From NCBI RefSeq assembly GCF_053078305.1, contig NZ_CP166879.1: DNA of 64,000 bases. One strand, written 5' to 3'. This document shows positions 11,236 through 11,417 of this stretch, piece after piece. The position numbers and the translations under genes are program-made. Positions within the stretch are counted from its first letter, which is position 1, and every line of letters begins with the position of its first letter. The notes below the pieces were generated by a model. The model was not told where the DNA came from, did not search any database, and was given only the letters and a program-made list of their open reading frames with translations.

Positions 11236-11417
11236 GCCGGATGCGACGCATGTCGCGTCTTATCCGGCCTACGGGATTGCACATGTAGAGCGGATAAAGC
11301 GTTCACGCCGCATCCGCCAGTGGCGCGGTGCAATTGCCGGATGCGACGCTTGCCGCGTCTTATCCGGCCTACGGGATTGCACATGTAGGGCGGATAAGGC
11401 GTTCACGCCGCATCCGC
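11236..11417. repeat. BIME / REP cluster (four REP units in alternating orientation) between eutG and eutH
   Basis: Units GCCGGATGCGACGC...GTCTTATCCGGCCTAC at 11236-11272 and 11336-11372, inverted partners at 11285-11318 and 11385-11417. Confidence 0.85.

Follow-up and report, generated by a model that had tools for sequence, protein, structure and literature searches.

The eut operon and its widest intergenic gap

The window analysed here (the whole stretch of 64,000 nucleotides from contig NZ_CP166879.1 of RefSeq assembly GCF_053078305.1) contains a complete eut operon on the plus strand, with 17 of the 17 genes in place from eutS, which begins at 3752, to eutR, which ends at about 18658, and with Eut proteins 98–100% identical to those of K-12. 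Most of these genes overlap or lie 9–20 nt apart. Wider gaps are found between eutD and eutM (38 nt), eutK and eutR (45 nt), eutM and eutN (106 nt) and eutG and eutH (11234-11449), the last of these, at 216 nt, being the widest in the operon. Upstream of it is eutG (10046-11233, + strand), determining an ethanol dehydrogenase (NCBIfam NF011998, EutG, 889 bits) with 99.5% identity to K-12 EutG and ending in a TAA stop codon at 11231-11233; downstream is eutH (11450-12676, + strand), the gene for the ethanolamine permease (NCBIfam NF011665, EutH, 874 bits). EutE and EutJ, encoded upstream of this pair, and EutA and EutB, encoded downstream of it, are all NCBIfam matches as well.

Two other junctions of the operon may be mentioned. 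The second-largest gap, between eutM and eutN (7398-7506), gave no REP match when the window was scanned for REPs. At the eutA–eutB junction (14077-14087), the two genes are adjacent in the window, as they are in W3110 and LF82; in MG1655 they are split by the 6.8-kb cryptic prophage CPZ-55, which the window does not carry.

Anatomy of the REP array

In the eutG–eutH spacer a 100-bp unit is present twice in direct orientation (11232-11317 and 11332-11417, 94% identical), and these copies carry four palindromes in the order z2(-), y(+), z2(-), y(+) across 11236-11418, wholly extragenic and within the 216 bp that separate the eutG stop from the eutH start. The z2-type REPs are 37 nt long (GCCGGATGCGACGC..GCGTCTTATCCGGCCTAC; 11236-11272 and 11336-11372), and the y-type REPs, which are inverted, are 34 nt long (GTAG(A/G)GCGGATAA(A/G)GCGTTCACGCCGCATCCGC, also written GTAGGGCGGATAAGGCGTTCACGCCGCATCCGC; 11285-11318 and 11385-11418). 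All four end in CTAC or begin with GTAG at the foot of the stem, and the CTAC and GTAG ends point toward each other inside each unit, which makes 'convergent REP pairs', the description used in an earlier sequence-only reading of this DNA, a fair one.

Following the array in the direction of transcription, REP 1 (z2; 11236-11272, - strand, as given by its GTAG end) was found by pattern match and reads GCCGGATGCGACGC-ATGTC-GCGTCTTATCCGGCCTAC in the mRNA, with a predicted hairpin of -22.9 kcal/mol (z = -4.6). Its CTAC end is separated from the GTAG end of REP 2 (y; 11285-11318, + strand; GTAGAGCGGATAAAGCGTTCACGCCGCATCCGCC) by a 12-nt linker that is apparent on reading the sequence, GGGATTGCACAT (11273-11284). 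REP 2 has two G>A changes peculiar to the window, at 11289 and 11298, and its stem is weaker than that of REP 4 (-12.2 vs -18.9 kcal/mol). A linker of 17 nt, AGTGGCGCGGTGCAATT (11319-11335), which falls within the Rfam naRNA4 match described below, joins the two 100-bp units. It is followed by REP 3 (z2; 11336-11372, - strand), with zero mismatches to the z2 scan form and a hairpin of -22.8 kcal/mol, by a second copy of the 12-nt linker (11373-11384, likewise read from the sequence) and by REP 4 (y; 11385-11418, + strand; GTAGGGCGGATAAGGCGTTCACGCCGCATCCGCT). The same 12-nt linker recurs in the alleles of K-12, S9, CEC15, PEC41 and DETEC-E1005. What remains of the spacer (11419-11449, + strand) is an old REP-free part that includes the eutH Shine–Dalgarno sequence, GGGAG (11437-11441).

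All four REPs form predicted hairpins (-12.2 to -22.9 kcal/mol) whose stems are interrupted by an internal mismatch or bulge, and the spacer with short flanks (11225-11450) has a predicted RNA fold of -103.8 kcal/mol (z = -4.7), in agreement with the structured element of about 180 bp that had been read from the sequence. The eutH initiation region, at -1.7 kcal/mol for 11419-11449, is not better folded than shuffled sequence and is unstructured. The 37-nt REP pattern gave 2 matches where 0.00 were expected (100 shuffles); the z2 and y scan forms were composed for the purpose, in part from the locus itself, and independent support for them comes from the Rfam model of a REP pair.

A consensus scan of 11234-11449 gave no intrinsic terminator, and REP 4 is followed by AAUAAAUAACAAC, which contains no U run; a consensus scan of the same spacer for promoters was also negative. 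The spacer is strongly structured, and with G = 66 and C = 59 it has no rut-like excess of C over G, so it lacks the C-rich, G-poor, unstructured character by which Rho-dependent terminators are recognized.

A 66-codon ORF (11234-11434, + strand), with an ATG directly after the eutG stop (TAAATG) and an end close to the eutH Shine–Dalgarno sequence, was weighed as a gene or as a means of translational coupling through the array. The end of this frame shifts with the allele, falling at nt 90 of 116 in the one-unit spacer, 201 of 216 with two units, 255 of 316 with three, 255 of 516 with five and 39 of 99 in O157, from which we take the ORF to be a by-product of G+C-rich repeats and not a gene.

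Identity of the element

With its two 100-bp z2 + y units, the element is a REP array of the BIME-2 type, and it is the counterpart of REP178 of K-12. REP178 of MG1655 (2568140-2568322, 183 bp, of type 'Tandem') is entered in the supplement of Harris et al. 2026 with eutG as its upstream and eutH as its downstream gene, and it maps to 11235-11417 of the window, within 1 nt of the limits (11236-11417) proposed in the sequence-only reading. The K-12 spacer is also 216 bp long, has the same z2-y-z2-y order and occupies the same locus, so that the two elements are orthologous, although nine point differences separate the spacers, two of which weaken REP 2 of the window. With REP178 on record for K-12, the element is already catalogued; the supplements of Ton-Hoang 2012 and of RepRanger contain nothing on eut.

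A further line of evidence is a match to the Rfam family naRNA4 (RF02564) at 11288-11369 (+ strand; 65.3 bits vs a gathering score of 59.5). The model of this family derives from a single REP pair in the REP325 array of K-12; what it describes, in practice, is a pair of REPs, and a hit to it is no sign of a separate sRNA gene at this place. That the eut operon has a four-unit REP/BIME cluster between eutG and eutH, as proposed, is thus borne out by the anatomy of the sequence, by the NCBIfam assignments of the flanking genes, by REP178 and by naRNA4.

Arrays and single REPs of this kind are numerous, E. coli having several hundred REPs genome-wide (PMC3333891), and a 617-nt query over the element found a median of 6 places per E. 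coli genome at the megablast level. Elsewhere in the window there are a single y-type REP (21512-21545, - strand), which adjoins a match to the Rfam sRNA family ES036 (CssrF; 21546-21587, + strand, 48.3 bits vs a threshold of 37.6), a single z1-type REP (32927-32962) and a y + z1 pair (54797-54830 and 54849-54884) that looks BIME-1-like. The window also contains two tRNA clusters, one of four genes (46146-46540, - strand) and one of three (49240-49542, + strand), with several members in each cluster having identical Rfam scores.

Variation of the junction within E. coli

The sequence-only reading had called for a comparison of presence and copy number among strains, and this showed the junction to be highly variable, with one to five units in most alleles, and with the array decayed or replaced in others. 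Alleles that were read directly include spacers of 116 bp with one unit (CEC15), 216 bp with two (the window, K-12 and S9), 316 bp with three (PEC41) and 516 bp with five (DETEC-E1005). In O157:H7 (N8B7-2; 1701-1799 of the fetched locus), the spacer is 99 bp and decayed: the 5' arm of z2 is deleted and y is degenerate, leaving the remnants of one unit. Two further alleles are REP-free, one of 169 bp with another kind of G-tract palindromic repeat (STO_Bone2, 1701-1869 of the fetched locus; LF82, identical, 8769-8937) and one of 105 bp with a shorter form of that repeat (E300010, 1701-1805 of the fetched locus).

The frequencies of these alleles were estimated by a census in which a flank-only query was used and the span of the match gave the spacer length, applied to 60 evenly spaced records out of 5,411. 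Two units were found in 24 of the 60, one unit in 19, three in 4, four in 2 and five in 4, while 3 were of the O157 type, 3 of the 169-bp type and 1 was rearranged; in terms of shares, 40% had two units, about 32% one unit, about 17% three to five units and 5% the decayed O157:H7 form. The commonest allele is therefore the two-unit form, as in the window. A separate sample of 40 rows was concordant (two units in about 42%, one unit in about 32%), and an exact count put the 169-bp allele with its unrelated repeat at 304 of 5,426 genomes (5.6%). The number of units differs among strains whose flanks are 99.4–99.7% identical to those of the window, so units are gained and lost quickly compared with the pace of point mutation.

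The REP stems were compared across Escherichia alleles, from which copies were partially recovered; there were seven distinct z2 and seven distinct y sequences, and the stem changes in those few copies included one compensatory change (C-G to T-A) and some that break the stem.

Two observations on the rarer forms may be added. The repeat of the REP-free 169-bp allele consists of G-tract palindromes (CCCCTCGCCCCTTTGGGGAGAGGGTTAGGGTGAGGGG ... CCCTCACCCC) and is found in several further places in each genome; it may be tentatively likened to 'Box C'. In MRSN346647, eutG is annotated as a pseudogene with its C-terminus missing, and the interior of the gene (..ATGGCGCATC) directly abuts the end of a y REP (CCGCCAGTGGCGCGG; 3190-3215 of the fetched locus), after which come three more units, a deletion with one end within the array.

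Origin of the spacer across genera

For a wider view, EutH loci were surveyed with one genome per species, and the eutG–eutH spacer was extracted from each. Short REP-free spacers were found in several Citrobacter (27 nt), in Yokenella and a Pluralibacter MAG (32 nt) and in Hafnia (31 nt), and longer REP-free ones in Buttiauxella (43 nt) and Morganella (42–45 nt). The last 31 nt of the window's spacer, AATAAATAACAACTAACAGGGAGTAAAGGCG, including GGGAG, match the short spacers of Citrobacter, Yokenella and Pluralibacter over their whole length (27–32 nt), and the REP-free spacers of the other genera match them in sequence as well. These 31 nt therefore correspond to the old short spacer, and the array is an insertion that separates the stop codon of eutG from the ancestral initiation region of eutH.

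Palindromes are also present at this junction in other genera. Salmonella has a spacer of 67 nt with one REP-type unit, 2 nt past the stop codon, and REP-type palindromes of other kinds occur in other Citrobacter (119–163 nt) and in Pseudocitrobacter (123 nt); the Klebsiella junction (170–216 nt) has a Klebsiella-type palindrome. Spacers in other Escherichia species are of 116, 315, 474 and 578 nt.

What the array may do to eut expression

The ability of REP arrays to stabilize the mRNA upstream and attenuate expression downstream, which the sequence-only reading had brought to bear on this locus, is documented for REP325 rather than for eut: the 12 hairpins of REP325 lower expression of the downstream gene yjdN about 10-fold, partly through Rho, and stabilize upstream yjdM about 3-fold at the native level (bioRxiv 10.64898/2026.03.23.713779). 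In the same study, pieces of REP325 with two or four hairpins showed no sensitivity to bicyclomycin, Rho dependence being seen with the full array only; the need for a C-rich rut was noted to be one that NusG can relax; and the ratio of upstream to downstream RNA for tandem gene pairs containing a REP had a median log value of 0.96 vs -0.09. REP hairpins withstand 3'-to-5' exonucleases and are located at steady-state 3' ends (PMC6061677). A REP less than 16 nt past a stop codon lowers translation of the upstream gene by ribosome stalling, according to the account of Liang, Rudd & Deutscher 2015 given in PMC12306157.

The last of these effects bears on a feature of the eut array that the sequence-only reading had overlooked: its first hairpin starts 2 nt past the eutG stop codon (stop 11231-11233, first paired base 11236), well inside the 16-nt limit. 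The array thereby falls in the class of REPs reported to reduce translation of the upstream gene, and this suggests a local effect that may fall on eutG rather than on eutH.

With this in mind, we think it reasonably likely that the eut array, as a BIME-2-type element and the counterpart of REP178, has been sized by repeat dynamics and has local, modest and context-dependent effects on the mRNA. It would arise and change in size by REP propagation, a process tied in the literature to the REP-associated transposase, together with unequal recombination or slippage between 100-bp units, by which the range of one to five or six units among strains would be produced. Transcribed as part of an eut mRNA of about 15 kb, it would form four stable hairpins that block 3'-to-5' exonucleases, so that decay intermediates running from eutS to eutG and ending at the array should last longer. 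A ribosome terminating on eutG would have to melt the first hairpin, and the output of EutG is probably somewhat lower as a result. Transcription lost before eutH-A-B-C-L-K-R is probably small, given that the array has only four hairpins and lacks both a U-tract and a C-rich tract, and eutH would be translated independently from its own open Shine–Dalgarno sequence. The reduction of downstream eut expression proposed in the sequence-only reading is unlikely to be much, and would be small at most.

Some published measurements can be set beside this. W3110 has an intact eut operon and a spacer identical to the two-unit allele of MG1655, and in its induced proteome (PMC11334477; EutQ = 100) the products of genes upstream of the array include EutE at 27, EutD at 10 and EutG at 7, and those of genes downstream EutB at 37, EutC at 24, EutL at 39 and EutK at 8. 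These values are not what strong polarity would lead one to expect, and they are compatible with some damping of EutG, with the proviso that protein levels also depend on the translation efficiency of each gene, so that a two- to three-fold drop in transcription is still compatible with them. The low level of EutG has many possible causes.

RNA-seq data for two other strains were set aside as tests of the array. LF82, the one strain for which absolute values were found, showed a step up of about three-fold from eutG to eutH in both conditions (RPKM for eutH vs eutG of 106 vs 35 and 514 vs 168; PMC6379400), and this strain has the REP-free 169-bp allele; the step in the absence of REPs points to mRNA segments of unequal stability or to an internal start close to eutH, neither of which would depend on the array. 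For O157:H7 EDL933 the values (PMC6199705) are induction ratios only, from a strain with the decayed allele; they are slightly lower for eutH to eutK than for eutS to eutG. The DESeq baseMean values for eutG and eutH given by Harris et al. 2026 were likewise set aside, since they stem from separate tables and were obtained with uninduced cells.

How far might the array act as a true attenuator? Were it a partial, Rho-assisted terminator that appreciably lowers transcription of eutH-eutA-eutB-eutC-eutL-eutK (and eutR) while stabilizing the mRNA upstream, its likeness to REP325 in period and polarity, the 10-fold effect of that array on yjdN and the upstream bias of REP-containing tandem pairs would all find a parallel here, as would the attenuation of transcription by BIMEs reported by Espeli et al. 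2001 (as cited in PMC6061677 and PMC3333891); a 216-nt untranslated gap could permit the loading of Rho, and the slightly lower induction of eutH to eutK in EDL933 goes in the same direction, although it comes from a decayed allele and consists of ratios rather than absolute levels. We nevertheless consider such an attenuator unlikely, because four hairpins are no more than the REP325 pieces that were insensitive to bicyclomycin, there is neither a U-tract nor an excess of C over G, and EutB, EutC and EutL of two-unit W3110 are not below EutE, EutD and EutG. Strong polarity would also be costly, since the downstream genes determine the first enzyme of the pathway (EutBC), EutL, which is a major protein of the shell, and the activator EutR. 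Peaks of Rho binding in vitro at or near REP178 (MG1655 2568056-2568201 and 2568390-2568551, + strand; Harris et al. 2026 supplement), one obtained without NusG and one with it, overlap REP178 or lie at most 68 nt away, but they are antisense to eut. At the other extreme, the array might persist merely because the eutG–eutH gap tolerates insertions, with copy number drifting by recombination between units and with no selectable effect on expression. The decayed form in O157:H7, the replacement in 5.6% of genomes (LF82 among them) and the one to five units elsewhere, between nearly identical flanks, indicate that E. coli does not depend on any one copy number and fit a largely neutral element; so do the precisely empty spacers of several related genera, the two stem-weakening changes in REP 2 of the window, the loss of the 3' end of eutG in MRSN346647 by a deletion ending in a y REP, and the view of REPs as non-autonomous elements tied to the REP-associated transposase (PMC3333891). 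Against this, hairpins as stable as these must have some physical consequence once the spacer is transcribed, and REPs at other loci are documented to affect decay and translation. In addition, the genus-specific REP types found at this one junction in Escherichia, Salmonella, Citrobacter, Pseudocitrobacter and Klebsiella hint that the site is preferred or that the repeats are mildly beneficial. Taken as a whole, we regard neutrality as a serious though less probable alternative; it overlaps the account of a repeat-sized array with modest local effects on the mRNA, and does not exclude it.

Two further ideas give the array a larger part, and we think both very improbable. One places its action at the level of DNA, where a BIME-2 array might serve as a gyrase binding or cleavage site or as a topological insulator, relieving supercoiling caused by eut transcription. 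Gyrase is described as cleaving BIME-2 elements in vivo, and the elements as a barrier that insulates against the positive supercoils induced by transcription (Espeli & Boccard 1997; Moulin et al. 2005; both as relayed by PMC3333891), and the array does lie roughly mid-way in a 15-kb transcription unit; but many strains with one unit, none or a decayed one keep the operon, and the REP325 study found no part for that array in chromosome structure. The other would make the eutG–eutH junction a conserved landing site for REPs in the Enterobacteriaceae, each genus with its own type, and the unit number in E. coli (zero to five or six) a heritable, rapidly mutating dial of the ratio between upstream (eutS-to-eutG) and downstream (eutH-A-B-C-L-K) expression. 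Since eutR is the last eut gene, the gain of auto-induction in the operon would depend on the dial as well, and strains would then differ in their threshold for induction by ethanolamine with promoter and coding sequence unchanged.

Significance

The element is a known member of the best-known family of bacterial repeats, and variation of BIME-2 copy number from strain to strain has already been described. Its position gives it some practical weight, as the eut operon is important for studies of gut colonization and virulence. The junction differs by strain (two units in K-12, three in a T7 Express strain, a decayed form in O157:H7 and an unrelated repeat in LF82), so comparisons of eut expression between strains should allow for the allele. 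The natural series of 0, 1, 2, 3, 4 and 5 units at one inducible locus would also be a handy system in which to relate REP number to attenuation, to mRNA stabilization and to translation of the upstream gene.

Comparison with known REP systems

Intercistronic REP hairpins between malE and malF are said, from the 1987 work of Newbury and colleagues, to shield the upstream mRNA from 3'-to-5' decay and so to bring about differential expression within the operon. The malE–malF REPs are like the eut array in lying in a polycistronic operon, and differ from it in the operon concerned and in the arrangement of the REPs.

Within the E. coli repeat families, BIME-1 (also RIB or RIP) combines z1 as a single copy with a long L linker, often containing an IHF site (PMC3333891). 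The eut array shares with it the inverted combination of a y REP and a z-type REP, but has z2 units and linkers of 12 and 17 nt, and no core of the WATCAA type for IHF is visible in the sequence of the eutG–eutH spacer. BIME-2, in contrast, is defined by z2 and y REPs, inverted, with short linkers, in tandem and with copy number differing between strains (Ton-Hoang et al. 2012, PMC3333891; Bachellier/Gilson nomenclature), and in every one of these respects (z2/y alternation, inverted orientation, short linkers, tandem arrangement and strain-variable copy number) the eut array agrees with it, and we found no difference; for the S linker and the flanking s/l/r motifs of BIME-2, the comparison covered linker length (12 and 17 nt).

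The closest parallel for function is REP325, in the yjdM–yjdN operon of K-12, which likewise lies between two co-transcribed genes and has the same 100-bp period, the same pairing of y (GTAG first) with a z-type REP ending in CTAC, and the same polarity in the mRNA. A role in nucleoid compaction that had been proposed for naRNA4 was not reproduced. The z unit of REP325 is of the GCCTGATG...TTATCAGGC form rather than z2, and its linkers are of 17 and 13 nt as against 12 and 17 nt; above all, REP325 has six units (12 hairpins), where the eut array has two (four hairpins).
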